From an uncultured Acidobacteriota bacterium (GTDB taxonomy: Bacteria; Acidobacteriota; Thermoanaerobaculia; Multivoradales; SZUA-115), in assembly GCA_963805975.1 (NCBI GenBank), contig CAWDVR010000001.1, positions 608,001 to 672,000 on the forward strand: 64,000 nucleotides of DNA, written 5' to 3'. The notes beneath the pieces are model-generated. The model did not search any database. It saw only the letters and a program-made list of their open reading frames with translations, and was not told the origin of the DNA. The translations under genes and the position numbers were made by a program. This document shows, one piece after another, positions 21,953 through 44,422 of the stretch. Each line of letters opens with the position of its first letter. Position 1 is the first letter of the stretch.

Positions 21953-24754
21953 CTAGTCGGCGCGCAGGGTCTCGACCGGGTCCACCGCCGCGGCGCGTCG
22001 GGCCGGCCGGAAGCCCGCCAGCGTACCCACCGCCAGCACGATCCCGAGCACCGCGAGATAGGCGGCAGGATCGCGGGCGCTGACGCCGTAGAGCAGGCTG
22101 TCGAGCAGCCGGGCGGCGAACCAGGAGACGAGCGTGCCCAGCACGGCGCCGGTGGCGATCAGGCCGAGGCCGTTGCCGAGCACGTGCGCCAGCACCTGTC
22201 CGGGCCGCGCGCCGAGCGCCATGCGAATGCCGATCTCGCGCCGCCGCTGCGCCACGGCGTAGGAGATGACGCTGTACACCCCGGCCGCGGCCAGCAGGAT
22301 CGACACCGCGGTGAAGACCCACAGCAGCCAGGAGTAGGCGAGCCGGAACCACAGCGAGCGGTCCATCCTCTCGGCGAGAGTGCGCACGTCCCCCATCGGC
22401 AGCTCGGGATCGAGCTTCGCCAGCACCTGGCGCGCCGGCGCCACGAGCTGGAGAGGGTCGCGCGAGGTGCGCAGCACGAATCCCAGTGACGGGTAGCCGC
22501 GCTGGCGGTAGGGCACGTGGAGGCTGGGCCTCATCGGCCGGTCGAGGCCGTAGTGCTTGACGTCGCGGGTGATGCCGACCACCGGGATGAAGTCCTCGCC
22601 GGTCGCGCCGTAGCGCAGCCGCTTGCCGAGGGCGCCGCCTTCCGGCCAGAATTGCCGGACGAAGCTCTCGTTGACGATCGCCACCCGGGTGGCGTCGTCG
22701 TGGCCGTCCAGCTCGCTGAAGGTCCGCCCCTCGAGCAGAGTCACCCCCAGCGTCTCGAGGTATCCGGGTGTGGCCGCGACCTCGAGCACCACCGGGTTGG
22801 CCTCGCCCGGCGCCGGCGTCCAGCCGCCCTCGACCACGGCGAACCAGCCGTTGTGCTCACCCACCGGCAGCTTCGACGCCGCGCCGGCAGACTCGACGCC
22901 GGGCAGAGCCCGAAGCTCGGCGAGGAGGCGGTCGTAGAAGGCGATTCGCGCCGCCTCGTCGGCGTACCTCGACGCCGGCGGCCAGACCCGGAACGTCAGG
23001 GCTCCCTCGGGCTCGAAGCCCGGATCGCCCGCCTGCACGTTGCGCAACGACGCCACCAGCACCGAGGACGCGACCAGCAGGAGCACGGTCAGCGCCACCT
23101 CGCCGACGATCAGCGCCGCCAGCGTGTTGCGGTGGCCGCGGGACCACCCGGCGCGGCCTCCCTCCTGCAGGCACTCGCGGGCATCCACCCGCGCCGCCGA
23201 GAGCGCCGGCACCAGGCCGAAGAGGGCGACCGCCGAGCCGGTGACCGCGGCGCAGAAGAGCGCCGCCCGGAGATCGAGGGGGAAGCCGATCCAGGCGGGC
23301 AGCAGGTCGGGGACCAGGCGCAGCAGGCCCTTCAGAGCAAGGCTGCCGAGCCCCACCCCGAGCCCGGCGCCAATCGCCGCCAGGAGCAGGCACTCGATCA
23401 GGAGCTGGCGGACGATCGCGCCCCGCGCCGCGCCCATCGCGGTGCGAATGGCGATCTCCCGGGCGCGCGAGGAGGCGCGCACCATCATCAGCCCGGCGAC
23501 ATTGGCGCAGGCGATCAGCAGCAGGATGGCGACGCCGCCGAGCAGCAGGTAGGTCGCGGTGCGGTAGCTGCCCAACAGGCGTTCGCGCAGCGGCGTCACG
23601 ATGGGCGAGGTGACGACGTCCTGCCGGCCCATGGCCGCGGCGTGGTTGCGGTGGACTCGCCCGAGGTCCGCCGTCGCCTGCTCGATCGACACACCGGGCT
23701 TCAGGCGCCCGATGCCGCTCAGGTTGTAGCTGTCCCCGACCGTCGGGTCGGCCGCGAGCGGCACCCACACCTCGGCCCTCTGCGGATAGACGGCCTCGCG
23801 CGGCAGCACGCCGACCACGGTGTAGGCCTCGCCGTCGATCTTCAGGGCGCGGCCCACGACGCCGGGATCGCCCTGGAACAGCCGGTGCCAGAGGGCGTGG
23901 CCGAGCATCGCGACCCGCGGGCCGTTCGGCCGGTCCTCCTCGGGCAGGAAGCCCCGTCCGACGACGGGGCTCAGCTTCAGCACCTCGAGCATGCGATGCG
24001 TGACCTGCGCCCCTCGCACCCGCAGCGTGCCGCCGTCGTCGGCCGTCCCCCCGGCTGGAGCCCCCTCCGCTGGTGTCAAATTGACGCCGTTGGCGATCGA
24101 GAAGGCCATGGCCTCGAACGAGGTGCTGCCGGCCTCCCAGGCGAGGTAGTCCGCGTTCGAGACGCTGGTGAACTCCAGGTTCCAGCGCGGGGCGGTCTCG
24201 TCCAGGTCCACCAGGCGGTCCAGCCCGGGGAAGGGCCAGGGTCGCAGGAAAAGGCCGTTGTAGATGCTGAACACGGCCGCGGTGCCGCCGATCCCCAGCG
24301 CGAGCATGGTGATCACCATGGCGCTGAAGGCCGGTTTCAGGCGCAGGCCACGGAAAGCCGACCTGAGGTCGTGGCCGAACGAAGCGAAGCCGAGCTTGCC
24401 GAGCATCGTCGATCTCCTCGCGACAGGTCGTAGCCCGAGCACGGGCGGCCGCGGCGAACGGAAGGTGCGCAGCGCACCGAGCGCCTGCGGGAAGCCGGTG
24501 CCCTCGTCCAGCTCGGCGAGCAACTGCCGGCGGGCCTCTCCCTCGGAGCGCCCCTGCGCCAGGAGGTCGGCGAGCTGGCTCTCGAGGTGCTGGGCCAGCT
24601 CGTCCACCACCTCGGCCTCGCGGGCCGCATCGAGCCCGGCGCGCGCCACCAGCTCCCGGACCGCCGCCCTCCAATCGGAACCGGCTCTCCAGTCAGACCC
24701 CGCTTTCCAATCAGACCCCGCTTTCCAATTAGACCCCGCTTTCCAATTAGACAT
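21953..24754 (-). CDS. ADOP-type duplicated ABC permease (MacB_PCD/FtsX x2) with an N-terminal permease-prefix region
   Basis: EVVDELAQHLE prefix, LALGIGGTAAVFS, LLIACANVAGL, REIAIRTAMGA, REIGIRMALGA, PARRAAAVDP. Confidence 0.92.
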   Translation of the reverse strand: MSNWKAGSNWKAGSDWKAGSDWRAGSDWRAAVRELVARAGLDAAREAEVVDELAQHLESQLADLLAQGRSEGEARRQLLAELDEGTGFPQALGALRTFRSPRPPVLGLRPVARRSTMLGKLGFASFGHDLRSAFRGLRLKPAFSAMVITMLALGIGGTAAVFSIYNGLFLRPWPFPGLDRLVDLDETAPRWNLEFTSVSNADYLAWEAGSTSFEAMAFSIANGVNLTPAEGAPAGGTADDGGTLRVRGAQVTHRMLEVLKLSPVVGRGFLPEEDRPNGPRVAMLGHALWHRLFQGDPGVVGRALKIDGEAYTVVGVLPREAVYPQRAEVWVPLAADPTVGDSYNLSGIGRLKPGVSIEQATADLGRVHRNHAAAMGRQDVVTSPIVTPLRERLLGSYRTATYLLLGGVAILLLIACANVAGLMMVRASSRAREIAIRTAMGAARGAIVRQLLIECLLLAAIGAGLGVGLGSLALKGLLRLVPDLLPAWIGFPLDLRAALFCAAVTGSAVALFGLVPALSAARVDARECLQEGGRAGWSRGHRNTLAALIVGEVALTVLLLVASSVLVASLRNVQAGDPGFEPEGALTFRVWPPASRYADEAARIAFYDRLLAELRALPGVESAGAASKLPVGEHNGWFAVVEGGWTPAPGEANPVVLEVAATPGYLETLGVTLLEGRTFSELDGHDDATRVAIVNESFVRQFWPEGGALGKRLRYGATGEDFIPVVGITRDVKHYGLDRPMRPSLHVPYRQRGYPSLGFVLRTSRDPLQLVAPARQVLAKLDPELPMGDVRTLAERMDRSLWFRLAYSWLLWVFTAVSILLAAAGVYSVISYAVAQRRREIGIRMALGARPGQVLAHVLGNGLGLIATGAVLGTLVSWFAARLLDSLLYGVSARDPAAYLAVLGIVLAVGTLAGFRPARRAAAVDPVETLRAD
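24662..24751 (-). repeat. 18-bp tandem repeat (5 copies, degenerating) encoding S(N/D)W(K/R)AG
   Basis: Plus-strand unit agaccccgctttccaat(t/c); protein MSNWKAGSNWKAGSDWKAGSDWRAGSDWRAA. Confidence 0.9.
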
Positions 24755-25091
24755 ACTCGACCCCGGTGAGACGGCCCATCGCCTGGGCGAACTCCCGCCA
24801 CTGCTGGCGCTGGGCCATGAGCACGCGGCGGCCGGTGGCCGTGAGCTCGTAGAAGCGCCGCCGCCGCTCGCCGGCCTTCTCGACCCAGCGGCCCTCGAGC
24901 CAGCCGCGGTCCTCCAGGCGGTAGAGCAGCGGGTAGAGGGTGGTGACGTGGAAGCTCAGCGCGCCCTCCGAGCGCGACTCGATGAGACGGCTGATCTCGT
25001 AGCCGTGGCGGGCGCGCTCCTCGAGCAGCGACAGGATCAGGAACTCGGCGCTGCCCTTCTTCCACTCGCGGTCGTACTGTGGGACCTCCAT
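24747..25091 (-). CDS. PadR family transcriptional regulator
   Basis: KKGSAEFLILSLL, HGYEI, TLYPLLYRLEDRGWL, RRRRFYELTATG; overlaps the ADOP start. Confidence 0.95.
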   Translation of the reverse strand: MEVPQYDREWKKGSAEFLILSLLEERARHGYEISRLIESRSEGALSFHVTTLYPLLYRLEDRGWLEGRWVEKAGERRRRFYELTATGRRVLMAQRQQWREFAQAMGRLTGVEYV

Positions 25092-25193: not shown

Positions 25194-26579
25194 GTGACGC
25201 GCCCCACCCATCCCGGTCCGCGCATCGCTCTCCTCAGCCCGAAAGGGCCGCTCTATCGCCACAACGGCGGCATCTTCCGCCAGACGCTGCGCTACATGCC
25301 GTTGACGCTGCCCACCCTGGCGGCCCTGGTGCCCGCGGAGCTGGGGGCCGAGATCGCCTGCTTCGACGAGGGCATCGGCGATGTGCCGCTCGACCTCGAG
25401 GCCGACCTCGTGGGCATGACGGTGATCACCGGCTCGGCCCCCCGCGCCTACGAGCTGGCCGCGCACTTCCGGAAGCGGGGCATGGCGGTGGTGCTGGGGG
25501 GGCCGCACGTGACCCTGGTGCCGGACGACGCGCAGCCGCACGCCGACGCGATCGTGGTGGGCTATGCCGAGGAGGAGTGGCCGCGGCTGCTCCGCGACTT
25601 CGCCGCCGGCGCGCTCCGGCCGCGCTACGTCCAGTCTCCCGATCTCGACCTCGCGCTCTCGCCGCTGCCTGACCGTAGTGTGCTGCCCCGCCGCAAGTAC
25701 CTGACGGCGGACGTCTTCGAAGCCACGCGCGGCTGCCGCCACGCCTGCGACTTCTGCGTGGTGCCGGCGGCCTGGGGGAGGAGGCCGCTGCAAAAGCCGG
25801 TGGAGCACGTGGTCGAGGACATCCGGCGCCGCCGGGCCCGGCGGGCCATCTTCGTGGATCTGAACCTGATCGCCGACAAGGAGTACGCGGCGCGGCTCTT
25901 CACCGCCCTGATCCCCTTGCGGGTGCAGTGGTTCGGCCTCGCCACGACGCTCCTCGCGGAAGACCTTCCGCTCCTCGACCTCGCGGCCCGCAGCGGCTGC
26001 CGGGGGCTCCTGATGGGGCTCGAATCGATCTCGCGCACGAACCTCAGGGGCTCGAAGAAGGGATTCAACGACCCCGAGCGCTTTCCCGAGGTGGTGCACC
26101 GGCTCCATGAGCGCAAGATCGCCCTCCAGGGCTGCTTCGTCTTCGGTCTCGACGAGGACAGACCCGAGGTGTTCCTCGAGACCGCCCGTTTCGCCGTCGC
26201 CGCGCGGATCGACCTGCCGCGTTTCGCCATCGTGACGCCGTTCCCCGGCACCGAGCTCTACCGGCGGCTGGACGGCGAAGGCCGGATCCTCTCCCGCGAC
26301 TGGCAGCGCTACGACGGCCAGCACGCCGTGTTCCAGCCGCTGCACATGACTCCCCGCGAGCTCGAGCTGGGCACCGAGGCCGCCTGGAAGCACGCCTACA
26401 GCGCCGCCGGCATGGTGGCGCGGCTGCGGCACACGGCGGCGCCCTGGAGCGTGGCCCTGCTCTCGAACCTGGGGTACCGCCACTACGCCCACCGCCTGCA
26501 CCGTTTCTACACCTGCGATTGGGGCCTGGCGACGGCCGGCGGATGGTTGCGGCCCGCGCTTCAGGCGAGGGCAGGATGA
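25194..26579 (+). CDS. B12-binding-domain radical SAM protein 1
   Basis: Cobalamin-binding-like N-terminus (PLTLPTLAAL, RAYELA..FR..G..VVLGGPHVT); TRGCRHACDFC; GCFVFGLD; TPFPGT. Confidence 0.92.
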   Translation: MTRPTHPGPRIALLSPKGPLYRHNGGIFRQTLRYMPLTLPTLAALVPAELGAEIACFDEGIGDVPLDLEADLVGMTVITGSAPRAYELAAHFRKRGMAVVLGGPHVTLVPDDAQPHADAIVVGYAEEEWPRLLRDFAAGALRPRYVQSPDLDLALSPLPDRSVLPRRKYLTADVFEATRGCRHACDFCVVPAAWGRRPLQKPVEHVVEDIRRRRARRAIFVDLNLIADKEYAARLFTALIPLRVQWFGLATTLLAEDLPLLDLAARSGCRGLLMGLESISRTNLRGSKKGFNDPERFPEVVHRLHERKIALQGCFVFGLDEDRPEVFLETARFAVAARIDLPRFAIVTPFPGTELYRRLDGEGRILSRDWQRYDGQHAVFQPLHMTPRELELGTEAAWKHAYSAAGMVARLRHTAAPWSVALLSNLGYRHYAHRLHRFYTCDWGLATAGGWLRPALQARAG

Positions 26580-27436
26580 GGGTCGACCGCTCGCGCTACT
26601 TCCTGAGCCCCGCGGTGACGCCGTTCGCCTACACCGCGGCCTACGCCGGATGGAACGAGGAGCGCCGGCGGCGCTCGAACCAGCTCACGGCCCTGGCCTT
26701 CAACGAGGGCATCGCGTTCTTCGAGCGGGTGTTCTCGGGCAGCTTGGAGGCGGTGAGAGACCGGCTCGCGGAGAGCGACGAGCTGGGCGCCCCCCTCGAC
26801 CTGTTTCTCGCCGACGAAGCGCGCCACGCCGCCGCCTGGGACGCGCTCAACCGCGCCGCCGAGCCCCGCTACTACGGCGGCAAGGAGATCCGGCCCCTCG
26901 TGCCGGTGTCGCCCCGGCTCGGCCGCGCGATCGTGGGCCTGGCCGGCAGGCCGCGTCTCTTTCCCGTCGTGTTCTGGGTGATGCTGGCCTTGGAGGAGCA
27001 CTCGCTCCACATGACCCGCTGCTGCCTCGGCCGTGGCCGGGAGGCCATCGACCCTGCGTTCCGAGAGGCCTATCGCGAGCACGCGCGGGACGAGGCCCGC
27101 CACGTGCAGGTGGACCTGCGCCTGATCGAGCGCTTCTACGCCCCCCTGCCGTGGCCGCTGCGGTGGATGAACGGGCTGCTGTTGCGCACCCTCCTCCATG
27201 GTGTGCTGCTGGCGCCCGGGCGCCGGGCCCGTGCCGTCCTGGCCCGGCTGGTCGAGGAACAGCCGGAGCTGGCGGTCGAACGGCCGCGGATCGAGCGCGA
27301 GCTGTCGCAGCTCGGCCGGGACCGCGGCTACCTGGCGATGATGTACTCGCCCCGAGCCACGCCGTTGTTCTGGCAGCACCTCGGCCGCTTCCCCGAGCTG
27401 CGCTCCACCCGGCGCCGGCTGGAGGCCGCGGCATGA
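26576..27436 (+). CDS. Ferritin-like diiron oxygenase (AurF-like or desaturase-like)
   Basis: ATGA overlap at 26576; four-helix carboxylate pattern NE..FFE, DEARH, LEE, HARDEARH. Confidence 0.75.
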   Translation: MRVDRSRYFLSPAVTPFAYTAAYAGWNEERRRRSNQLTALAFNEGIAFFERVFSGSLEAVRDRLAESDELGAPLDLFLADEARHAAAWDALNRAAEPRYYGGKEIRPLVPVSPRLGRAIVGLAGRPRLFPVVFWVMLALEEHSLHMTRCCLGRGREAIDPAFREAYREHARDEARHVQVDLRLIERFYAPLPWPLRWMNGLLLRTLLHGVLLAPGRRARAVLARLVEEQPELAVERPRIERELSQLGRDRGYLAMMYSPRATPLFWQHLGRFPELRSTRRRLEAAA

Positions 27437-27446
27437 GAGCCGAGAC

Positions 27447-28772
27447 ATGAGAGTCACGTTTGTGAGGCCGGCCATCGGCGGCGTCCGCTCGTTCGACGCC
27501 ATGGAGCCGCTGGCCTTCGCCCTGCTCGCGGCACGCACGCCGGGCGAGGTGGAGCTGGCGCTCTACGACGAGCGGCTGGAGCGGGTGCCGGTGGAGGAGC
27601 CCACCGACCTCGCGGCGCTCACCATCGAGACCTACACCGCCTGCCGGGCCTATCAGTTGGCCGCCGCCTTCCGCCGCCGGGGCGTGCCGGTGGTGGCCGG
27701 GGGCTACCATCCGACTTTTCTGCCGGAGGAGGCCCTGCGGCACGTGGATGCGGTGGTGGTGGGCGACGGCGAAGAGGTGTGGCCGGAGCTGCTGGCCGAC
27801 GCCCGGGCCGGCAGGCTGGCCCGGCGCTACCAGGGGCAGGGGTTTCCCTCCCTGGCCGGCCTGCGTTTCGACCGCGCGATCTTCGCCGGCAAGCGCTACC
27901 AGCCGGTGGCGCCGGTGCAGTACGGCCGGGGCTGCCGCTACGCCTGCGACTTCTGCTCGATCCACGCCTTCTACGGCGCGAGCGTCCGCCAGCGCCCGGT
28001 GGGCGAGGTGGTGGACGAGATTCGCGCCACCGGCCGGCGCTTCGTGCTGCTGGTGGACGACAACCTGTTCGTCGACGCCGAGAAGGCCCGCGAGCTGTTC
28101 TCGGCCCTCGCGCCGCTCGGCATCTCGTGGGGCTGCCAGGTGTCGATCGACGTCGCCCGCGACCCGGAGCTGCTCGCCGCCATGGCCAGGAGCGGCTGCA
28201 TCGCGGCGCTCATCGGCTTCGAATCGCTCGCCGACGGCAACCTGCGACAGATGAAGAAACGCTGGAACCTGGCCCTCGGCGACTACCCGTCGGTGGTGGC
28301 CCGCTTCGCCGAGCACGGGATCATGATCTACGGCTCGTTCATCTTCGGCTACGACGAGGACGACCGGACCGTCTTCGACCGCACGGTGGAGTTCGCCCTC
28401 GACAGCCGGCTGTTTCTCGCCAACTTCAATCCGCTGGCGCCCACCCCCGCCACCCGGCTCTACGCCCGGCTCGAGGCCGAGGGGCGGCTGCTCTCTCCCA
28501 CCTGGTGGCTGGACCCCGACTATCGCTACGGCGACATCGTCTTCCAGCCGGCGAGGATGTCGCCCGCGGACCTCGCCCGGGGCTGCGACCGTGCCCGCCG
28601 CGGCTTCTACCGCTACGGCTCGCTGTGGAGGCGGGCCTGGGAGCGGCGCAGCAACAGCCGTTCGCTCGGGCGGCTGTCGATCTTCCTGGGCGCCAACTGG
28701 ATGTCGCGCCGGGAGCTGGCGACCAAGATCGGGCGCCGGCTGGGTGGCCAGGACCTTCTGGCGGCGGCCTGA
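27447..28772 (+). CDS. B12-binding-domain radical SAM protein 2
   Basis: MEPLAFALLA, RAYQLAAAFRRRGVPVVAGGYHPT, GRGCRYACDFC, VDDN, GSFIFGYD. Confidence 0.92.
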   Translation: MRVTFVRPAIGGVRSFDAMEPLAFALLAARTPGEVELALYDERLERVPVEEPTDLAALTIETYTACRAYQLAAAFRRRGVPVVAGGYHPTFLPEEALRHVDAVVVGDGEEVWPELLADARAGRLARRYQGQGFPSLAGLRFDRAIFAGKRYQPVAPVQYGRGCRYACDFCSIHAFYGASVRQRPVGEVVDEIRATGRRFVLLVDDNLFVDAEKARELFSALAPLGISWGCQVSIDVARDPELLAAMARSGCIAALIGFESLADGNLRQMKKRWNLALGDYPSVVARFAEHGIMIYGSFIFGYDEDDRTVFDRTVEFALDSRLFLANFNPLAPTPATRLYARLEAEGRLLSPTWWLDPDYRYGDIVFQPARMSPADLARGCDRARRGFYRYGSLWRRAWERRSNSRSLGRLSIFLGANWMSRRELATKIGRRLGGQDLLAAA

Positions 28773-28773
28773 G

Positions 28774-29721
28774 ATGAAGACCACGACCACGAAGCCCGGC
28801 CCGCGTGCCGCGTACCCCGTTCCGGCCCGGCTCAACCTGGCCATCGTCGCCGTGCAGATCGCGCTCGCCCTCGGCATCTTCTGGCTCGCCGCGCGCGCCC
28901 ACGCCCCCTGGCACCTGGTGGCGCTCGCCCTCGCCTTCGCCGTGGTGGGCAATTCGATCTATTCCTCGCTGCACGAGGCCGAGCACCGCATCCTCCATCC
29001 CCGCCGGGTAGTGAACGAAGGGCTGGGCGTGGTGCTCGGGCTGTTCTTCCCGGCGCCTTTCCACCTCTTGCGGCAAGGCCATCTCGGCCACCACCTGCGC
29101 AACCGCTCGGACGACGAGGCCTTCGACTTCTACTTCGCGGGCGAGAGCCCGCTGTGGAAGCGGGTGCAGCTCTACGGCACCTTGACCGGCCTCTTCTGGC
29201 TGGTGATCGTGCTCTCGAACCTGGTGGTGCTGGTGCGGCCGCAGGCCCTCACCCGCCGGCGGTTCGAGTTCGACCGCCCGACGGCGGCGCTGGTGGACTC
29301 GTTCAACCCTGCCTGGTGGCCGTGGATCCGGCTGGAGGCGGCGGCGGTGATCGCGCTCCACACCCTCCTGCCCTGGGCCCTGGGAGTCCCGCCGCTCTCC
29401 TACCTCGCGGTGTACTTCGGATTCGGTTTCACCTGGTCGGCGATGCAGTACGTGCACCACTTCGGCACCGAGCGCGACGTGATCGAGGGCACCCGCAACC
29501 TCGCGCTCTGGGCACCGCTCGACCTCGCCTGGCTGAACCACGGCTGGCATCTGACGCACCATCGCCACCCCACGGTGCCGTGGGTGCACCTGCCGCGCCT
29601 GAGCCGGTCCGAGAACCCGCGGCGAGAGCAGATGCTCTGGCACTACCTCAAGATGTGGCGCGGCCCTCGCCGCGGCACCGAGCACGTCGAGAACCGTTAT
29701 GACGGCCGCATCATCCGCTGA
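28774..29721 (+). CDS. Membrane fatty acid desaturase family protein
   Basis: His boxes HEAEH, HLGHH, QYVHH and HLTHH..P.VPW..LP; several TM helices; ATG 1 nt after the rSAM2 stop. Confidence 0.9.
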   Translation: MKTTTTKPGPRAAYPVPARLNLAIVAVQIALALGIFWLAARAHAPWHLVALALAFAVVGNSIYSSLHEAEHRILHPRRVVNEGLGVVLGLFFPAPFHLLRQGHLGHHLRNRSDDEAFDFYFAGESPLWKRVQLYGTLTGLFWLVIVLSNLVVLVRPQALTRRRFEFDRPTAALVDSFNPAWWPWIRLEAAAVIALHTLLPWALGVPPLSYLAVYFGFGFTWSAMQYVHHFGTERDVIEGTRNLALWAPLDLAWLNHGWHLTHHRHPTVPWVHLPRLSRSENPRREQMLWHYLKMWRGPRRGTEHVENRYDGRIIR

Positions 29722-30416
29722 CCGCACGGACCTGCCGCTGCCGGCCTTCGCTCTGCCCGCCGGGCGGCGGCTGGCGATGGTGGCGCTCGGCTACATTCCG
29801 TTGCTCCATGCCGGCGCCGTCACCGCCACACTGGTGCTGCCGCTGCTCCGGCCTCTGGCCTCGCTGGGCGTGGGCGCTGGCGCCGCCGACCCTCTTCCTG
29901 CTGCCGCCGCTCGTGGTGCGTCTCGCCCTGCTCGTTCGGCCGCTGGCTGCGGCCTCGATCGAGCTCGGCTCCGGCGCCTTTCTCCTCTGGTGGTTCACCG
30001 CCCAGTGGCAGGCGATCTTCAACCGCCTGGGCTTTCTGGAGGAGCTCCTGCGGCTGGTGCCGGGCCTCTACGGCGCCTGGCTGCGGCTCTGGGGCGCCAG
30101 GGTGGGCCGCCTGGTGTACTTCTCTCCGGAGTGCCGGGTGGTCGACCGGCCGTTCGTCGTCCTCGGCCACCGGGTTCTGCTCTCGATCGGCGCGCGGCTC
30201 TCGCCGCATCTCGTCAGCCGCGGGCCGGATGGCGTGGCGCGGCTGCTCCTGGCGCCGATCGAGATCGGCGACGGCGCGATGATCGGCGGCCACTCCTGGT
30301 TGGGGCCGGGGGCCTTCGTCGCCCCGGGAGAGATGACGCCCGCCGTCTACGCACTGCCCGCGTTCTCCCGCTTCGAGGGCGGCAAGCGCACCCACCATCA
30401 CCCCACCCTGATCTGA
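29699..30416 (+). CDS. Membrane-anchored left-handed beta-helix acyltransferase-like protein; frameshift near 29849
   Basis: Hydrophobic N-terminus; after a 1-nt shift WLRLWGARVGRLVY...PIEIGDGAMIGGHSWLGPG hexapeptide-repeat pattern. Confidence 0.65.
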
Positions 30417-30434
30417 CGGCGAAGCGAATCGACC

Positions 30435-31127
30435 ATGAGCCCCGCCAGCCTTCGCCGCCGTGTTGCCGCCCACCTGCCGCTCAAGCTGGGGCTGACGGGA
30501 GCGTTGCTGGCCGGCGTGTCGCTCGGGTACTTCGGGGTGCAGCGGTTGCGGCTCGTGGCGCCGCTCGCCGTGCCCGGGACCTGGCTCGGCAGTGGGCTCG
30601 ACCGCGCCGTACCCTTCGACCCGAGCTGGACCGGTGTCTACCTCTCGCTCTATCTGCTGACGCCGATCCTGCCCTGGGCCACCGCCGACCGGCACTCGCT
30701 GCTGCGCTATGGCCGCGGCTTCGCCGCGCTGGCAGCGGTGTCGTTTCTCTTCTTCGCGCTGCTGCCGGTGGAGTCGCCGCGGCCGGACACGCTGCCCGAC
30801 CAGGCGCTCTATCGGCTGCTGACCTCCGTCGACGGTACCCTCAACGCCTTTCCCTCTCTCCACGCGAGCCTCGCCATCTACTCCTGGCTGTACGGCCGCC
30901 GGCTGCTGGCCGCGGCCCCGGCCGGCAGCCGGCTCGCCATTCTGGGAGGCCTCGCGCTGTGGATCGCCCTGATCTTCTATTCCACGCTGGCCACCCGCCA
31001 GCACCAGGCCCTGGACCTCGCCGCCGGTGCCCTGCTGGCCTGGGTCTGCGACCGCTGGGCCTGGCGCGGCAGCGCTCGAGCTGCCGGGTCGACATGGATC
31101 GAGCTCACCAGGAGGGAAGCACCATGA
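30435..31127 (+). CDS. PAP2-superfamily membrane phosphatase/phosphotransferase (IPC-synthase-like)
   Basis: LDRAVPF, NAFPSLHAS, STLATRQHQALDLAAG; multiple TMs. Confidence 0.85.
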   Translation: MSPASLRRRVAAHLPLKLGLTGALLAGVSLGYFGVQRLRLVAPLAVPGTWLGSGLDRAVPFDPSWTGVYLSLYLLTPILPWATADRHSLLRYGRGFAALAAVSFLFFALLPVESPRPDTLPDQALYRLLTSVDGTLNAFPSLHASLAIYSWLYGRRLLAAAPAGSRLAILGGLALWIALIFYSTLATRQHQALDLAAGALLAWVCDRWAWRGSARAAGSTWIELTRREAP

Positions 31128-31741
31128 CCAAGCCGAGCCTCGCCCTCGGTCTCGCTCTCGCCGTCTGGGTGGCGCTGCCACTCGCCGCGGAAGACTCGCC
31201 CCAGGCAGTCTCCTCGCCAGCGGCTGCTTCCGAGGAGGCGGATCACGAGGCCCTGCGCGCGCTCCGCGCCTTGTACGAAGAGGCGGCGGCGAAAGGTGAT
31301 CCTGCCGCGCTCGAGCCCCACCTGGCGCCGGACTTCACCGGCGTGATGATCAAGGGCAACGAGGTAGTGGGCTACGCCGGCCTCGCCGAGTTCTGGCGCG
31401 GCGTCCAGCAGCAGATGGGAGAAGGCGGGCACTACAGCGTGCAAGTGCTGGCGGCCGAGAAGAGCCGGATCTTCGGCGACATCGCCCTGGCGCGGGGCTC
31501 CACCGAGGACCGGATCGTCACCGGTGCCGGCCGTGAGCTCCGCTTCACCAGCCAGTGGACGGCGGTCTGCCAGAAGATCGACGGCCGGTGGAAGCTGCTC
31601 CGAGTCCAGGGCACCCTCGATCCCTTGGACAATCCCTTCCTCGACGGCGTGGTGGCGGCCCGCAGCTACCAGGTGGGCGGACTGGCGCTCCTGGCGGGCC
31701 TGGTCCTGGGCTTCCTCGCCGGGAGAAGGCGCCGGGGCTGA
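31124..31741 (+). CDS. Exported NTF2/SnoaL-like (DUF4440) protein with a C-terminal TM anchor
   Basis: Signal peptide; HLAPDFTGV, GDIALARG, WTAVCQKIDGRWKLLRVQ; hydrophobic tail ending GRRRRG. Confidence 0.8.
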   Translation: MTKPSLALGLALAVWVALPLAAEDSPQAVSSPAAASEEADHEALRALRALYEEAAAKGDPAALEPHLAPDFTGVMIKGNEVVGYAGLAEFWRGVQQQMGEGGHYSVQVLAAEKSRIFGDIALARGSTEDRIVTGAGRELRFTSQWTAVCQKIDGRWKLLRVQGTLDPLDNPFLDGVVAARSYQVGGLALLAGLVLGFLAGRRRRG

Positions 31742-31744
31742 TCC

Positions 31745-32717
31745 ATGCTGGCGGCGAGCCTCTCCGCGTCCGCGGCCCCCGCCCGCCGGCTCTTCGCCGA
31801 ACCGGGCGTGGTGGTGCGCGGCTGGTACGTCGCCGCCCCGTCGCGCGAGCTCGAGGCGGGCCGGGTGAAGGCGGTGGAGCTCGGCTCCCGCCGCCTCGCC
31901 GTGTGGCGCGACCGGCAGGGTCGGCCGCACGCCTGCGACGCCCGCTGCCCGCACCTGGGCGCCGATCTCAGTCAGGGTGAGGTGGTGGAGAAGGGTCTGC
32001 GTTGCGCCTTCCATCACTGGACCTTCGACGGCGCCGGCCGCTGCGCCGCGGCACCGGGCTACGATCCGCCGCCCGATCGCCAGACGACGTCGCTGCCGGT
32101 GGCCGAGCGCTTCGGGCTGGTCTGGGTGTGGGCCGGGCCCATCGCCCTCTCGGACCCGCCGGCCTTTCCCGAGGGCGACGCGGAGCGGCGGTACCTGCGG
32201 CTGCCGGCGCCGTCCAGACGGCTCGCCTGCCACCCCCACCTGATCATCGCCAACGGCCTCGACACCGCCCATTTCGAGACCCTCCACGGCATGCGCTACA
32301 CGCGCCAGCCGGCGGTGGAGCGCGGCGGGCCGCACCCGCTCTCGGTGACGCTCGAGGGCCGGCCCCGCTCGGCGCTGCTCGCCGCGCTCACCGGCACCGG
32401 CTCGCGGCCGCTTCGAGCCCGCTTCACCGCGCTGGGGCCGGGGGTGGCGTGGTCGACCGTCGAGTTCGCCCGTCGCCTTCCATACCCTCTACACCGCCCG
32501 CCCGCTGCCGGAGGGCGGCGCCCTCACCCGCCTGGTGCTCTTCCTGCCCCGGCGGCCGGGGCTCGCCCTGCCCCGCGCCCTGCTGCTCATGGCGCTGCTC
32601 CTGCACCGCGACCGCCAGATCCTCGAACGACTGCGCTTCCACCGCGGTTTCGCCGCCCGCGACCAGGCGCTCGCCCGTTTCGCCGAGCTGGTGGATGGGA
32701 TGGAGGTGTTCTCGTGA
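31745..32717 (+). CDS. Rieske [2Fe-2S] non-heme iron oxygenase; frameshift near 32465
   Basis: CPHLG...CAFHHW Rieske motif; NGLDTAHFETLH iron site; removing 1 nt gives a C-terminus ending at a TGA that overlaps the next GTG. Confidence 0.8.
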
Positions 32718-34084
32718 GCCGCCCCTTCCGGCTCACCCTGGTGCACCCCTGCGTGGGCCGCTATCCGGGCATGAAGCGCTACATCCGCACCTGGAAGATG
32801 CAGCCCCTGCCCCCGGCGGTGATCGCGGCGCTGGCGCCCGCCGACGTCGAGAAGCGCTTCTACGACGACCGGCTGGAGGCCATCCCCTTCGACCAGCCCA
32901 CCGACCTGGTGGCGCTCTCCGTCGAGACCTACACCGCCCGCCGCGCCTACCAGATCGCCAGCGAGTTCCGCCGCCGGGGCGTGCCGGTGGTGCTGGGCGG
33001 CTTTCACGCCACGCTCTGCCCGGAGGAGGTGGCGCGCTACGGGGACTCGGTGGTGGTGGGCGAGGCGGAGGAGACCTTCCCCGAGGTGATCGACGACTAC
33101 CGCCACGGCCGGCCACGGAAGCTCTACCGCGCCGCGGACCGGCCCCGCCTGGGCCGGGTGCTGCCGGACCGCTCGATCTTCCGCGGCAAGAGCTACCTTC
33201 CCATCGGCCTCGTGGAGTTCTCGCGCGGCTGCCGCTTCAAGTGCGACTTCTGCGCCATCCAGAGCTTCTTCGACGCCAGCCACAGCCACCACCCGATCGA
33301 CCGCGTGCTCGCCGACGTGGCGCGGGCCCGGCGCCGCGGGCAGATGCTGTTCTTCATCGACGACAACATGAGCTCCGACCTCGAGGCCGCCAAGGACCTG
33401 ATGCGCGCCCTCATTCCCTTGAAGCTGCGCTGGGTGAGCCAGTCGGCGATCAACGTGGCCTTCGACGAGGAGGCGCTGGCGCTGCTGGCGGCGAGCGGGT
33501 GCCAGGGCCTGCTTGTGGGTCTCGAGAGCCTGGATGCCGCGAGCCTCAAGGACATGAACAAGGGGTTCAACCTGATGCGGGGCGGCCCCCGCCAGGCGCT
33601 CGCCAACTTCCGGCGCCACGGGCTGCGCATCTACGGAACCTTCATCTTCGGCTACGACGGCGACGGCCCCGAGGCCTTCGACCGGGCGGTGGAGTTCGGG
33701 CGGGAGGAGGGGCTGTTCATCGCCGCCTTCAACCACATCACGCCGTTTCCCGGCACTCCGCTCTACCAGCGCCTGGCCGCGGAAGGGCGGCTGCTCTACG
33801 ACGCCTGGTGGCTCGACTCCCGCTATCGCTACAACATGGTGCCGTTCACTCCACGCCGGATGAGCGCCGAGGAGCTGGCGGACCGCTGCCTCGACGCCCG
33901 GCGACGCTTCTACGCCTGGGGGAGCATCCTCGAGCGGGCGGCCCGGCGGGTGAACCGCCACAGCCCCTTCATGCTCGCCAACTTCCTCGCCATCAACGCC
34001 ATGCACCAGCGCGACGTGGAGGGGCGAAGCGGCCTGCCGCTGGGAGATCCGGGCTTCGCGGGTCCGCTGCTCGAGGCCGGCTGA
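32714..34084 (+). CDS. B12-binding-domain radical SAM protein 3
   Basis: GTG at 32714 after GGAGG; ETYTARRAYQIASEFRRRGVPVVLGGFHAT; SRGCRFKCDFC; IDDN; GTFIFGYD; TPFPGT. Confidence 0.9.
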   Translation: MSRPFRLTLVHPCVGRYPGMKRYIRTWKMQPLPPAVIAALAPADVEKRFYDDRLEAIPFDQPTDLVALSVETYTARRAYQIASEFRRRGVPVVLGGFHATLCPEEVARYGDSVVVGEAEETFPEVIDDYRHGRPRKLYRAADRPRLGRVLPDRSIFRGKSYLPIGLVEFSRGCRFKCDFCAIQSFFDASHSHHPIDRVLADVARARRRGQMLFFIDDNMSSDLEAAKDLMRALIPLKLRWVSQSAINVAFDEEALALLAASGCQGLLVGLESLDAASLKDMNKGFNLMRGGPRQALANFRRHGLRIYGTFIFGYDGDGPEAFDRAVEFGREEGLFIAAFNHITPFPGTPLYQRLAAEGRLLYDAWWLDSRYRYNMVPFTPRRMSAEELADRCLDARRRFYAWGSILERAARRVNRHSPFMLANFLAINAMHQRDVEGRSGLPLGDPGFAGPLLEAG

Positions 34085-34086
34085 CG

Positions 34087-35211
34087 ATGAGCGGAGCTCC
34101 GGCGGCGGCCCGCTTCCACGCCCGCCTCGCGACCGCGGAAGACGAGGCCGGAGCTCGCGCTCTCCTGGCCTCGCAGGCGATGGGCGGCGCGGTGCGGCTG
34201 GCCTTCGCCCGCGAGCCGGAGATCTCGCGTGCGGCCGGCATCGAGGGCGAGCCGCATCACGGCCTGGTGGTGTGCGAGGAGGGGTCGGGTCGGGTGGTGG
34301 GCTACGGCAGCCGGGCGGTGAAGACGGTGTGGGTGAACGGCGAGCGGGCACGGATCGGTTACCTGGCGCAGCTACGCCGGGCGCCGGACGCGGCGGGCAG
34401 GATCGGCCACCTGGCCATGGGCTTTCGGCTCCTGGCCCAAACCCGCCGCGACGGCGAGCTGCCCTTCGACGTCACCACCATCCTGGCCGACAACCGGGAG
34501 GCCCGCCGGCTGCTCGAAAAGGGTTTCGCCCGGCTGCCCGTCTACCGGCCGCTCGGCACGCTGGCGACGACCACGCTGGCGGTGGCCCGGCGGGCGCCCC
34601 GGCCGGGCGGCGCGGCGCGGGCCGCCACCGCCGCCGATCTGGCGGGCATCGCCGCCTGCCTCGAACGCAACGGCCGCCGCTTCCAGCTCGCCTCGGTCTG
34701 GACGGCCCAGGATCTGGCATCGCCCGTCCGCTGCCGGGGCCTCGCCCCGGCTGATTTTCAGATCGTCGAGCATGCGGGCACAGTGGTGGGCTGCGTCGCC
34801 CTTTGGGACCAACGGGCCTTCAAACAGACCCTCATCGCGGGCTATGCGCGGCCCCTGGCGCTCTCGCGTCCGCTCCTGAATCTGGGCTTTTGGGCCAGCG
34901 GCCGGCCTCTCCTGCCCCGGCCCGGTTCCCTGCTGGCGCTCGCCCACCTCTCGCACCTGGCCGTCGACGGCGACGACCCGGAGGTGGCCGCCGCGCTGGT
35001 GGCCGCCGCCCTCGCCGAGGCGGCCCGCCGCGGGCTCTCCTACCTGGCCCTCGCCCTCGGCGAGCGGCACCCGTTGCGCGCGGCCCTCGCGGCCCGATTT
35101 CCCGGTCGCCGGCTGGAGAGCGTGGTCTACCTGGTCTACAGCCACGGCCGAGAAGGGTGCGAGCCCTGCCTCGACGACCGCCCCCTCCACCTCGAGGCCG
35201 CGACCCTATGA
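34087..35211 (+). CDS. Tandem GNAT-fold acyltransferase-like protein
   Basis: Two repeats beginning R.AT..D; VVGYGSR...GYLAQLRR and VVGCVALWDQRAFKQ. Confidence 0.6.
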   Translation: MSGAPAAARFHARLATAEDEAGARALLASQAMGGAVRLAFAREPEISRAAGIEGEPHHGLVVCEEGSGRVVGYGSRAVKTVWVNGERARIGYLAQLRRAPDAAGRIGHLAMGFRLLAQTRRDGELPFDVTTILADNREARRLLEKGFARLPVYRPLGTLATTTLAVARRAPRPGGAARAATAADLAGIAACLERNGRRFQLASVWTAQDLASPVRCRGLAPADFQIVEHAGTVVGCVALWDQRAFKQTLIAGYARPLALSRPLLNLGFWASGRPLLPRPGSLLALAHLSHLAVDGDDPEVAAALVAAALAEAARRGLSYLALALGERHPLRAALAARFPGRRLESVVYLVYSHGREGCEPCLDDRPLHLEAATL

Positions 35212-35939
35212 AGGGCCGGCTGCTGGCGCGGTCCGAGATCTCGACGGAGCTGGCGGCCGAGATGTTCGGGTTGCTCGAACGGCACTTCGAGGGCGTGGCC
35301 AGGGCCCAGTTCCAGGCCGACCTCGAGGACAAGCACTGGGTGCTGCTGCTCGAGGGCCCGGCGGGCCGGCTCCAGGGCTTTTCCACGCTGAGGCTCGATC
35401 GCGAGGAGGTGGCAGGAGAGCCGGCGACGGTGGTCTATTCCGGGGACACGATCGTCGACCCCGAAGCCTGGGGCTCGTCGGTGCTGGCCCAGGCCTGGAT
35501 CGGTGCGGTGCTCTCGCTGCAGCAGAAACAGGGCGCGGGCCGTCTCTACTGGCTGCTCCTGGCGTCCGGTTTCCGCACCTACCGATTTCTGCCGGTCTTC
35601 TGGCGCGAGTTCTATCCCCGCTTCGACCGGCCCACGCCGGAGAGCCTGCGCGCCGAGGTCGATCGACTGGCGAGGCGGCGTTTCGGCGCCAGCTACGACC
35701 CGGCTGCGGGCGTGGTGCGCTTCCCGCGCCCGCAGCGGTTGCGGGGGGACCTCGCCGAAGTCCCGGCGGCGCGCCGCCACGACCCGCACGTGCGCTTCTT
35801 CGTCGAGGCCAACCCCGGCCACGCGTCGGGCGACGAGCTGGTGTGCTGGGCGGATCTCGATGCCACCAATCTCAGCCGCGCCGGCTGGCGGATGGTGAGG
35901 GCGGGGTCGCCTCTACACGGTGCACCGCCTGGAGGTTGA
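35208..35939 (+). CDS. Conserved hypothetical, GNAT-like protein
   Basis: ATGA overlap; MFGLLERHF, LQGFST, YSGDTIVDPEAWG, YWLLLASGFRTYRFL, NPGH..GDEL. Confidence 0.6.
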   Translation: MKGRLLARSEISTELAAEMFGLLERHFEGVARAQFQADLEDKHWVLLLEGPAGRLQGFSTLRLDREEVAGEPATVVYSGDTIVDPEAWGSSVLAQAWIGAVLSLQQKQGAGRLYWLLLASGFRTYRFLPVFWREFYPRFDRPTPESLRAEVDRLARRRFGASYDPAAGVVRFPRPQRLRGDLAEVPAARRHDPHVRFFVEANPGHASGDELVCWADLDATNLSRAGWRMVRAGSPLHGAPPGG

Positions 35940-35945
35940 TTCGAG

Positions 35946-37472
35946 ATGGGGCGCCTGGGCGCAGCGCTCGCCAACCGCTCGTGGGAGCTCGCCAACGGTG
36001 GCCACGAGCGGGCCTTCCGCGCCGCGCTCGCCGATCCCGCCGCCGCGCAGTGGCGGCTGCTCACCGCCAACCTCCGCGCCAACGCGGGCACCTGGTTCGG
36101 CCGGCGCCATGGCTTCGGGCAGGTCCGCTCGCTGGAACAGTTCCGCCGCCAGGTGCCGATCTCCGCCTACGAGGACTATGAGGAAGCCCTCGGGCGCGTC
36201 CGCCGGGGCGAGCGGGGCGTGCTCACCGCGGAGCCCGTCCTCCGCCTGCAACCGACCAGCGGCTCGACCGCCGGAACGAAGTGGATCGCCTACACGAGGA
36301 GCCTCCGAGGGGAGCTCCACCGCGCCGTGGGAGCCTGGGTCGTCGATCTCTTCCGGCGCCATCCGGCGCTTCGCGACGGTCGCGCCTACTGGTCGATCTC
36401 CCCGGCCACGCCCGCACCCGAAGAGACCTCGGCCGTGCCGCTGGGCTTCGCGGACGACAGCGAGTACCTGGGCGGCGTCGCGGGCTGGCTCGCTCGCCGG
36501 ACCTTCGCCGTGCCCCCGGAGACCGCCAGGCTCCCGGACGTGGACGCGTTCCGCCGCGCCACCCTGTTCCACCTGCTGGCCGCCGCGGACCTGGCGCTGG
36601 TCTCGGTGTGGCATCCGTCCTTCCTCGCGCTGCTCCTCGACGCGTTGCCTCCCGCCTGGGAGTCGCTGCTCCAGAAGCTCGCTGGGCTCCATCCGGCACG
36701 GGCGCGACAGCTCGGCGACCTCGACCCGCGGGCCTGGACGGCGATCTGGCCGCGCCTCGCCGTGGTGAGCTGCTGGGCCGACGCTCAGGCCGCGGCCCCG
36801 GCCGCCGAGCTCGCGGCGCGGCTGCCGGGCGTGACGGTCCAGCCCAAGGGCCTGATGGCCACCGAAGGGGTGCTCTCGATTCCCTTCGCCGGCCGGCGCC
36901 CGGTGGCCGTCACCAGCCATTTTCTCGAGCTTCTCGATGACCAGGATCGCTGCCACGGCGTCGAGGAGGTGGAACCGGGCGGGGAGTACACGCTGGCCCT
37001 CACCACCGGCGGCGGGCTCTACCGCTACCGCCTGGGGGACCGGGTCCGGGTCACCGGCTTTCTCGAGCGGGCTCCCTGCCTCGAGCTCCTGGGCCGCGAC
37101 GATCTGGTTTCGGACCTCGCGGGTGAAAAGCTCTCGGAGGCGTTCGTGGCTCGGGCCCTGGCCGACATCTTCGGTGCCTTCGCCCCGCAGGTCGCCTTCG
37201 CCCAGCTCGCGGCGGAGCAGGGCGCTCCACCGCGCTACAGGCTCCTCCTCGAATGCCGTGCGGATCCGCCCGCCGAGCTCGCCCAGCGGCTCGACCGAGC
37301 TCTCTGTGCCAACCCGCACTATGCCTACTGCCGGCGGTTGGGCCAGCTCGGCGAGATCGAGGTCCGCCGCCTCGCGGCCGGCGCTCACGCTGATTACCTC
37401 GAACGCCACCGCCGGATGGGCCGGCGGCTGGGCGAGATCAAGCCGGCCGCCCTCGAAGGGGTCCCCAGATGA
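35946..37472 (+). CDS. GH3-family acyl-adenylate/amido synthetase
   Basis: FRRQVPISAYEDY, PTSGSTAGTKWI, MATEG, TTGGGLYRYRLGD, LGR, GEKL. Confidence 0.9.
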   Translation: MGRLGAALANRSWELANGGHERAFRAALADPAAAQWRLLTANLRANAGTWFGRRHGFGQVRSLEQFRRQVPISAYEDYEEALGRVRRGERGVLTAEPVLRLQPTSGSTAGTKWIAYTRSLRGELHRAVGAWVVDLFRRHPALRDGRAYWSISPATPAPEETSAVPLGFADDSEYLGGVAGWLARRTFAVPPETARLPDVDAFRRATLFHLLAAADLALVSVWHPSFLALLLDALPPAWESLLQKLAGLHPARARQLGDLDPRAWTAIWPRLAVVSCWADAQAAAPAAELAARLPGVTVQPKGLMATEGVLSIPFAGRRPVAVTSHFLELLDDQDRCHGVEEVEPGGEYTLALTTGGGLYRYRLGDRVRVTGFLERAPCLELLGRDDLVSDLAGEKLSEAFVARALADIFGAFAPQVAFAQLAAEQGAPPRYRLLLECRADPPAELAQRLDRALCANPHYAYCRRLGQLGEIEVRRLAAGAHADYLERHRRMGRRLGEIKPAALEGVPR

Positions 37473-39207: not shown

Positions 39208-39480
39208 ATGACCAAGACGATCGCCCTCGAAGACCTGGAGCACGAGCTGAGGGGCGTTCTCGACGACATTGCCTCCGATCACACGGCCTACGTCGTGACG
39301 CGTGGTGACCGCCCCGCGGCGGCGCTCGTCTCCTATGGCGAGTTCCGGAAGCTCGCCGAGCTGGAAGAGACGAGAGTGCTCGCCCAGTTCGATGCGCTGA
39401 TGGCCAGGATGGAGCGCCGGAATACCGGCATCTCCGAGGACGAGATCGCGAGCGACGTGGCGGTCGAGACCGCGCGCTGA
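39208..39480 (+). CDS. Phd/YefM-family antitoxin
   Basis: VLDDI...YVVTRGDRPAAALVSY; directly upstream of a PIN gene. Confidence 0.8.
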   Translation: MTKTIALEDLEHELRGVLDDIASDHTAYVVTRGDRPAAALVSYGEFRKLAELEETRVLAQFDALMARMERRNTGISEDEIASDVAVETAR

Positions 39481-39481
39481 C

Positions 39482-39901
39482 GCCGCAGCGGTTGTCGACA
39501 CCAACATCCTGGTCCGCGCGCTCATCAAGCCTCAAGGCACCGTCGGTCCTGTTCTGAGTCGTCTCAGGAACCGCGAGTACGTCGCCCTCTACTCGGCTCA
39601 GATCCTGGAGGAGCTCGTGGACGTACTCAACCGGCCTCGCCTCCGAGCCAAGTACGGCCTGAGACCCGAGGACGCGGCGGCTGTCCTCAAGCTGATCCTG
39701 CTGCGCGGCGCGGAAGTACGGCCGACGCGGCGAATCACTGTCTGCCGAGATCCCAAGGACGACAAGTTTCTCGAGGTGGCTGTCGCCGGGCGTGCCGACG
39801 CCATCGTCAGCGGCGATCTCGATCTCCTGGTGCTGAGCCCGTTCGAAGGGATTCCTATCCTCGAGCCGGCAGAGTTTCTGGCTCGGTTGGCGGAGTCCTG
39901 A
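39482..39901 (+). CDS. PIN-domain toxin (TIGR00305-like); no canonical start before the first motif
   Basis: AVVDTNILVRAL...ILEEL...CRDPKDDKFLEVA...IVSGDLDLL; first in-frame GTG only at 39617. Confidence 0.8.
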   Translation, partial: AAAVVDTNILVRALIKPQGTVGPVLSRLRNREYVALYSAQILEELVDVLNRPRLRAKYGLRPEDAAAVLKLILLRGAEVRPTRRITVCRDPKDDKFLEVAVAGRADAIVSGDLDLLVLSPFEGIPILEPAEFLARLAES

Positions 39902-44420: not shown

Positions 44421-44422
44421 CG

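Follow-up and report, generated by a model that had tools for sequence, protein, structure and literature searches.

What does a bacterium make with an operon that brings together three cobalamin (B12)-binding radical S-adenosylmethionine (SAM) enzymes, three iron-dependent oxygenases or desaturases, two GNAT-fold proteins and a GH3 ligase? The question is raised by twelve genes at positions 25194-37472 of a 64,000-nt stretch of DNA, here called the window, from contig CAWDVR010000001.1 of an uncultured Acidobacteriota bacterium (assembly GCA_963805975.1). In order, the genes encode R1 (radical SAM), an AurF-like diiron protein, R2 (radical SAM), a desaturase, a left-handed beta-helix (LbH) protein, a PAP2 protein, an NTF2 protein, a Rieske oxygenase, R3 (radical SAM), GNAT1, GNAT2 and GH3 (Table 1). 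The answer proposed here, to which a probability of about 0.6 is assigned from sequence comparison, is that the operon makes an amide-linked membrane lipid of the lipo-amino-acid type, which would then be methylated, oxidised and capped with a head group. An earlier note on this DNA had suggested that the operon tailors a membrane lipid or an N-acyl amino acid. That idea stands in part, but tailoring alone would be too little: with three candidate amide- or acyl-forming enzymes, an amide scaffold is probably built by the operon itself.

Is such a set of genes a chance grouping? It is not, because the gene set recurs across phyla. An alignment search of a genome collection with GNAT1 gave 114 relatives, and the best 80 of these were used; their loci belong to 14 named phyla, with three unassigned. 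By tblastn, GNAT1 is found in all 80 loci, R3-like genes in 73, GH3 in 70, GNAT2 in 69 and R1-like genes in 67. Forty loci are fully flanked, that is, they extend at least 2.5 kb past the last recognised gene on both sides, and 35 of them hold a complete five-gene core of R1, R3, GNAT1, GNAT2 and GH3, so that the co-occurrence the earlier note had asked for elsewhere is conserved. The order is conserved too: R3 lies directly before GNAT1 in 78 of the 82 loci holding both, GNAT2 directly before GH3 in 76 of 78, and R1 before R3 in 71 of 76.

The other genes are optional. Among the fully flanked loci NTF2 occurs in 22, the desaturase in 21, PAP2 in 18, Rieske in 11 and a fourth radical SAM gene, R4, in 10, and the AurF-like and LbH genes are found in the same six. 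They also travel in company: the AurF-like gene stands with LbH in 19 of 21 loci and with the desaturase in 19 of 21, NTF2 with the desaturase in 66 of 73, and R2 before R4 in 23 of 24. The operon is a mosaic of the five-gene core and optional modules (desaturase–PAP2–NTF2; AurF-like–LbH; Rieske; R2–R4), instead of the single fixed unit of twelve genes that had been supposed.

How was the window copy put together? The core tree intermixes phyla. The window core is nearest to those of loci L001, L008, L004 and L014; the AurF–desaturase–LbH–PAP2–NTF2 block and the Rieske gene are nearest to Vicinamibacterales-type loci such as L031, which holds 11 of the 12 window genes; and R2 is nearest to L033 and L044. 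The window copy has kept R2 without R4 and added Rieske. GNAT1 is present in 30 of 201 genomes of the host's class (a tally that includes weak matches and two unpublished genomes, G175 and G179, which enter no other result), and 24 of the 30 fall in one family. The window's type of GH3 occurs in 4 of 41 relatives and in none of seven from the host's own family, and the AurF-like gene in 2 of the 41. At E 1e-60, GH3 is found in 19 of 401 genomes of the phylum; about 11 of these matches score lower, and for the most part they are GH3 genes that stand alone and belong to a different subfamily. One copy of the cluster lies on a mobilisable plasmid, NZ_CP134684.1, of Citrobacter portucalensis and comprises five radical SAM genes, both GNATs, GH3, PAP2, NTF2 and the desaturase. 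As side observations, a second, lower-scoring GH3 subfamily stands without cluster genes in Acidobacteriota (L210-L218); in genome G215 the AurF–desaturase–LbH–PAP2–NTF2 block and the core are on different contigs; and in L068 (5572-9560) IS66 and other transposase genes and a DruA-like gene sit directly upstream of GNAT1, at the core's place.

How would an amide be formed? The GH3 protein carries three nucleotide-binding motifs, TSGSTAGTK at residue 104, GLMATE at 302 and GLYRYRLGD at 357, of the kind set out in the accessible part of PMC12493201, and its profile matches plant GH3 structures (E 2e-36). By sequence its closest characterised relative is OlsH, at a score short of the family cut-off. 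[quoted passage not shown] As described there, that pathway likewise combines a bacterial GH3 bearing the three motifs with acyltransferase-type and methylating enzymes in an operon that has no ACP of its own. In other respects the two differ: the acyltransferases of the window operon are GNATs and not an alpha/beta hydrolase like OlsI, its methylation would be radical C-methylation and not N-methylation, and it adds oxygenases, PAP2, LbH and NTF2. In L025, GH3 and GNAT2 share one open frame; a search for longer homologs in support of a general GNAT2–GH3 fusion, a weak test, found none, and the fusion is taken as a case of L025. Several loci keep GH3 and the GNATs with no radical SAM gene in the stretch examined (L036, L052, L057 and L058, some cut short at their ends), a pattern suggestive of a scaffold that is made by the amide-forming enzymes and tailored by the radical SAM enzymes.

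The second candidate for acyl transfer, GNAT1, has no match to PDB sequences at E 10 and no membership of Pfam NMT or NMT_C, and its family comprises 3913 clusters at 50% identity. Its AlphaFold2 model (mean pLDDT 95.6) is a confident tandem GNAT. In a Foldseek search the top match is N-myristoyltransferase (NMT; E 1e-11, TM 0.60), and the alignment runs through the last residue, 374 (the range of the alignment, and not the coordinates of the model, gave the placement of the terminus). Across 142 of 142 aligned members, an alignment that leaves out two longer matches and several partial ones, the chain ends in one column as [ED]x[ASG]x[LMF]-stop. This fixed column recalls the catalytic base of NMT, which is the enzyme's own C-terminal carboxylate in the available portion of PMC7048800. 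The eukaryotic enzyme described there also has two GNAT domains and a chain end folded back, to which the modelled GNAT1 fold and its fixed C-terminal length would correspond; unlike it, GNAT1 is only 9-14% identical, and other tandem GNATs fit about as well.

Could GNAT1 then be a true bacterial N-myristoyltransferase, in a system that acylates or tailors an envelope macromolecule such as a protein N-terminus or lysine, a lipoprotein anchor or lipid A? The fold match with its C-terminal tail would agree with this, as would the secreted, membrane-tethered NTF2 protein that accompanies the cluster and an Lgt gene near the cluster in L039. Yet no conserved substrate protein or precursor peptide goes with the genes, NTF2 is absent from 18 of the 40 fully flanked loci, the fold is common to Eis-type and other tandem GNATs, and the known GH3 substrates are free acids and amino acids. 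Such a role is improbable. The GNAT1 family has a second context as well: in L035 (434-6928) a homolog stands without the cluster, after genes for DUF3419, a UbiA prenyltransferase and a BioF/Spt-family enzyme.

What would the radical SAM enzymes do to a lipid amide? R1, R2 and R3 all exceed the Pfam cut-offs for the B12-binding and Radical_SAM domains and have CxxxCxxC intact (at residue 181 in R1). DUF4070 scores 23.8 bits in R3 (E 5e-5), over the cut-off of 22, and stays below it in R1 (17.6 bits, E 0.004) and R2 (16.6 bits, E 0.008). This layout, its DUF4070 part weak, and the CxxxCxxC may be compared with those of HpnP and the HpnP-like proteins in the accessible text of PMC10697835. In a tree built on 42 chosen rows, the cluster's radical SAM proteins form four old cross-phylum groups (SH-aLRT 100, 92, 93 and 99; the R1 clade has 100), with identities of 60-65% within groups and 33-43% between them, and R1 carries DLNL at the site where the other clades have DDN. 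The groups are tied to GH3 and GNAT genes, unlike HpnR, HpnJ, Grs and Gmm as treated in the part of PMC13459092 that is available. The anammox ladderane clusters of PMC2649909 also hold B12-radical SAM genes, for which lipids have been proposed as substrates; unlike the window operon they carry type II fatty acid synthesis (FASII) and ACP genes, and GH3 does not occur in the accessible portion of that paper.

Comparison with the HpnJ, HpnR and ladderane families gave matches that are weak and all far below the cut-offs: 68-83 bits for HpnJ (cut-off 577.6), 42-64 for HpnR (650) and 52-74 for the ladderane-cluster model TIGR04072 (360); no HpnP model is among the NCBIfam matches, and HpnP was not scored separately. 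These matches, the HpnP-like layout and weak PAP2 matches at other loci (to phosphoinositol dihydroceramide synthase in one homolog, E 0.002, and, in PAP2 fusions, to HpnC/HpnD) might be taken to mean that the enzymes tailor a known class of lipid: hopanoids (HpnP/R/J), tetraethers (Grs/Gmm), ladderanes or sphingolipids. However, the best match reaches 87 bits against cut-offs of 251-775. Tailoring of hopanoids or sphingolipids is unlikely, and that of tetraethers, for which no Grs or Gmm model was scored, probably so, because the host genome, which is 96% complete, has no match to squalene-hopene cyclase (PF13243), and its proteins remain below cut-off for Tes (65 of 450 bits), for TIGR03960, which we take to be an Mss-like family (194 of 462), and for serine palmitoyltransferase, Spt (217 of 500). 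In its accessible part the 2026 review of lipid radical SAM enzymes, PMC13459092, nowhere uses the terms GH3, amide, acyltransferase or Rieske. A known lipid class as the target is highly improbable.

B12 itself would be imported: two further strong B12-binding genes are present in the host, and CobS has no match there. At four other loci (L021, L029, L033 and L078) a gene near the cluster is presumably a B12-dependent methionine synthase. A role of the operon in anti-phage defence was also considered and rejected, nothing being found beyond a weak radical SAM match to PDC-M51A in two of the twelve proteins.

The optional genes add oxidation and a membrane setting. In the desaturase, eight histidines (H67, H71, H103, H106, H107, H229, H262 and H263) are invariant in 29 of 29 homologs. 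The PAP2 protein keeps N137, P140, S141, L142, H143, H190 and D194 in 22 of 22 and has the PSLH and HxxxD motifs, while the first motif of the family, KxxxxxxRP, is not conserved. Its S141, H143, H190 and D194 correspond to S253, H255, H294 and D298 of the fungal inositol phosphorylceramide (IPC) synthase Aur1 in the accessible part of PMC13133130; the two share this S-x-H ... H-x-x-x-D triad and a PAP2_3 match, and the transferase activity is putative. The setting is unlike that of Aur1, and the acceptor is probably not ceramide, because no Spt in the host exceeds its cut-off. The NTF2 protein (PF14534, E 2.5e-11) has hydrophobic segments at residues 4-22 and 182-200. The LbH protein matches Hexapep weakly (E 0.006) and a homolog at E 9e-6, and is at best about 47-57% identical to homologs, which occur in 10 of the 80 loci (35-56% in the tblastn comparison). 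In the Rieske protein CxH..CxxH stands at residue 68 and DxxHxxxxH at 173. At five other loci PAP2 is fused to a helical domain with a visible DDxxD (L001, 16389-17858; L015, L034, L045 and L079), in L015 together with the desaturase; the domain, which is squalene-synthase-like, matches HpnC/HpnD weakly (E 8e-4 to 3e-3 in one comparison, 0.1-0.9 in another) and is absent from the window.

The AurF-like protein exceeds the PF11583 cut-off (42.4 against 29.6 bits, E 6.5e-11), and its profile finds the AurF structures at E 8e-4. The ligands E44, E81, H84, E140/E141, H169, E173 and H176, a set of three histidines and four carboxylates, are kept in 10 of 10 homologs. It shares with the aryl-amine diiron oxygenases AurF and CmlI the ferritin fold and the E..ExxH..E..HxxxExxH ligands; unlike them it is a remote match, no aminobenzoate supply genes recur beside it, and it travels with LbH and the desaturase.

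Do the surroundings speak of lipids? At other loci they do, in that the genes inserted there often encode lipid enzymes, which upholds the lipid-type setting first proposed. Examples are a GlsA-like O-acyltransferase directly behind R3 in L039 (242.6 bits; cut-off 260), a phosphatidylserine decarboxylase gene overlapping a radical SAM gene in L022, fatty-acid hydroxylases in two loci (L044 and L052), in L016 an MMPL transporter gene that points the same way as R2, and a Ser-Asp-His alpha/beta hydrolase (lipase-like, without an NCBIfam match) in 11 loci other than the window. Non-lipid neighbours occur at other loci as well: a P450, an ABM monooxygenase and a fusion of RnfD, FG-GAP and ASPIC/UnbV, the last adjoining GNAT1 or heading the AurF–desaturase–LbH–PAP2–NTF2 block (L052, L057, L058, L076 and L120). 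The lack of a polyketide synthase, nonribosomal peptide synthetase, ACP or precursor peptide, remarked on earlier for the operon, extends further: none is conserved among the recurring families or found in the small flanking open reading frames (ORFs), and the junctions leave no room for one. Of 48 such ORFs, called down to about 45-50 aa, 45 have no PP-binding match and the remaining three are Phd, PIN and ABM.

Another possibility is that the product is not a membrane lipid but a small diffusible acyl-amide, a signal, antibiotic or chelator. It might be an amino acid with an N-acyl or N-aroyl group that undergoes C-methylation, acetylation and, through the AurF-like enzyme, N-oxidation. GNAT2, the third candidate acyltransferase, gives this idea some substance. 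Its AlphaFold2 model (mean pLDDT 94.1) is a single GNAT whose VIA Z scores are 12.2 for NatD, 12.1 for Gcn5, 11.9 for LasI, 11.3 for RpaI and 10.4 for FeeM, so that the fold is as close to the N-acylhomoserine lactone synthases LasI and RpaI and to FeeM as to anything; PF13527 is matched in 10 of 62 members, and the protein is distantly like the first domain of GNAT1 (47% probability). Plant GH3 enzymes conjugate small acids (auxin, jasmonate, benzoates), and AurF, whose ligand set is intact here, oxidises an aryl amine; both facts fit a small molecule equally well. The patchy, lateral distribution with its plasmid copy and the P450, ABM and RnfD-fusion neighbours would suit such a compound. 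On the other side, no exporter, resistance gene, receptor or regulator is conserved among the recurring families, the commonest optional module (desaturase, NTF2, PAP2) is membrane-bound, and no genes for aromatic-acid supply recur. We therefore hold a diffusible amide to be possible and rather doubtful.

Some further points weigh, with the GH3 and AurF substrates, against a membrane lipid amide. No clear transmembrane segment is seen in any of the five core proteins, and in 7 of the 40 fully flanked loci the core stands without any optional gene. Most of the lipid genes cited in support come from one locus each. The PAP2 protein could be a plain phosphatase, because its triad fits a transferase and a phosphatase alike. 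GH3 scores 47.9 bits against the OlsH model NF052613, whose cut-off is 620, and one homolog 53.3. For GNAT1, the VIA Z of NMT (22.2) is tied with that of a mycobacterial tandem GNAT of unknown function (22.1), and its identity to NMT-type and tandem GNAT structures is 9-17%. Whether HpnP-like proteins act on terpenoids at all is unknown according to the part of PMC10697835 that is accessible.

How might a membrane lipid amide be assembled? Gene order, folds, motifs and modular co-occurrence are observed; the chemical steps we infer from family knowledge, at the level of remote homology. GH3 would adenylate a free fatty acid and join it to an amino acid or another amine, as OlsH does. GNAT2 and the NMT-like GNAT1 would supply more acyl groups, with acyl-CoA or acyl-ACP as donor, and the C-terminal carboxylate of GNAT1 may act as catalytic base when the amide is formed. 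Cobalamin-dependent methylation of unactivated carbons, with imported B12, would fall to R1 and R3, joined in this operon by R2. When O2 is present, the Rieske, desaturase and AurF-like enzymes would introduce hydroxyls or double bonds, and LbH may acylate the product of the AurF-like enzyme. Lastly, PAP2, working beside the tethered NTF2 protein, would transfer a phospho head group from a glycerophospholipid to a hydroxyl group on the outer side of the inner membrane, in the manner of IPC synthase.

Why does the window hold R2 without R4? In a metagenome scan centred on R2 (the best 80 of at least 635 matches), R4 is present in 47 of the 53 R2 loci with at least 1.5 kb downstream, and the host genome holds no fourth close radical SAM paralog. 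L169 and L172 are built like the window copy: R2 lies within the AurF/LbH/PAP2/NTF2 block, and the stretch examined shows no R4. R4 and Rieske are found together in none of 60 fully flanked loci (26 against 15; naive Fisher p 4e-5), a count from which short loci and three duplicates were left out; among 188 loci of any length both occur in one, L138, where the Rieske gene is of another subfamily. Corrected for the tree, the exclusion amounts to 7 independent pairs (sign test p 0.25-0.5), and the apparent mutual exclusion is a lead only. A speculative extension, which we consider unlikely, would see in the cluster an ancient lipid class not described before, a bacterial "pseudo-ceramide": an amide made by GH3 and the NMT-like enzyme without serine palmitoyltransferase, methylated or cyclised by paired B12-radical SAM enzymes and given its phospho head group by an IPC-synthase-like PAP2, with R4 (O2-independent) and Rieske (O2-dependent) as alternative routes to one and the same modification, whose swap would be recorded here in the keeping of R2, the loss of R4 and the gain of Rieske. 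Beside R4 stands a further family, F7, of 220-aa membrane proteins with an invariant HHGF (L022, 15530-16198, and 13 other loci), directly after R4 in 15 of 16 cases; it is unnamed, its atlas name being backed by no Pfam family and its recognition low.

What would it mean if the lipid proposal were true? Bacteria of at least 14 phyla would make an amide lipid that is still undescribed, by a route joining a GH3 ligase, a bacterial NMT-like acyltransferase (none of its clusters was found to be characterised) and HpnP-like radical SAM enzymes, as many as five of them. HpnP-like clades now called uncharacterised in the literature would gain a function and lipid radical SAM chemistry a new substrate class, and the pathway could account for unassigned methyl-branched amino lipids of soils and sediments. 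The plasmid copy in a cultured Citrobacter strain makes the question of the pathway testable. As to novelty, the view that no characterised cluster has this composition agrees with the NCBIfam comparison, which gave no match to a characterised system, and no description of the gene set was found in the open literature, subscription journals, MIBiG and supplements being outside the search. The accessible parts of the lipid radical SAM review (PMC13459092, 2026), an amino-lipid review (PMC12971839, 2026) and the ladderane paper (PMC2649909) do not cover it.

The reading of the locus itself is firm. ORF listing, sequence reading and tracking of third-codon-position GC content (GC3) confirm twelve co-oriented, tightly coupled genes in the order first given. 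The junctions are, in order, -4, +10, +1, -23, +18, -4, +3, -4, +2, -4 and +6 nt; ten of them are the ATGA/GTGA overlaps or gaps under 20 nt described before, but the desaturase and LbH genes overlap by 23 nt. Pfam backs ten of the gene labels, that of LbH weakly; the two GNAT proteins of the window have no Pfam or NCBIfam match, but their predicted folds agree with the calls.

Table 1. Genes of the operon, in window coordinates, with the basis of each assignment.
Feature	Position	Strand	Basis
R1: B12-binding radical SAM, clade R1 (core)	25194..26579	+	PF02310, PF04055, weak DUF4070
AurF-like ferritin-fold diiron oxygenase (optional; travels with LbH)	26576..27436	+	PF11583
R2: B12-binding radical SAM, clade R2 (optional; here without its usual partner R4)	27447..28772	+	Pfam, clade
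Membrane diiron desaturase/hydroxylase	28774..29721	+	PF00487 E 3.9e-27, hydrophobic segments
Membrane-anchored left-handed beta-helix (LbH) acyltransferase-like protein, frameshifted	29699..30416	+	weak Hexapep, homologs
PAP2-family membrane phosphotransferase/phosphatase, Aur1-type triad	30435..31127	+	PF01569, PF14378 (PAP2, PAP2_3)
NTF2/SnoaL-fold protein, N-terminal signal-like and C-terminal membrane segments	31124..31741	+	PF14534 (DUF4440/SnoaL)
Rieske non-haem iron oxygenase, frameshifted	31745..32717	+	PF00355 E 1.2e-22, KshA_C
R3: B12-binding radical SAM, clade R3 (core)	32714..34084	+	Pfam, clade
GNAT1: tandem-GNAT, N-myristoyltransferase-like acyltransferase (core)	34087..35211	+	predicted fold
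GNAT2: single-GNAT acyltransferase (core)	35208..35939	+	predicted fold
GH3-family acyl-adenylate/amide synthetase (core)	35946..37472	+	PF03321, PF23571, PF23572 (GH3 N/M/C)

Two genes change frame, LbH once near 29846 and Rieske once near 32465, and the two pieces of the Rieske frame align colinearly with a profile, over its positions 2-218 and 219-298. A strain in run X1, an independent soil metagenome, is about 94-98% alike and has one base fewer at each site, for which reason the breaks are most likely assembly errors, the alternative being strain-specific mutations. In X1 the operon is spread over 8 contig pieces, which keep the gene order and together span every one of the 11 junctions.

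The operon is bounded upstream by a divergent pair of genes, a PadR regulator and then a MacB/FtsX-type ABC permease (21953-25091, - strand), with about 100 nt between pair and operon, and downstream by a convergent MFS gene. The PadR protein presumably regulates the permease paired with it. Four to five 18-nt repeats lie at 24664-24753, before or at the start of the permease gene, and a PadR gene is likewise found upstream of the cluster in L031. No Rfam riboswitch or non-coding RNA reaches its gathering score between 24500 and 38000. A promoter scan gave no sigma-70-like site; seven terminator-like sites were found against 3.9 expected, all within genes.

Just past the downstream MFS gene, at 39208-39901 (+ strand), is a Phd/YefM antitoxin and PIN-domain toxin pair, and in L001 a Phd/PIN pair directly follows the cluster. 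A third frameshift, suspected in the neighbouring PIN gene, proved not to be real. Further on, at 43950-47461, lie purine-degradation genes (deaminase, uricase) with malate synthase adjoining, and beside them is a gene which we presume may encode an OHCU decarboxylase.

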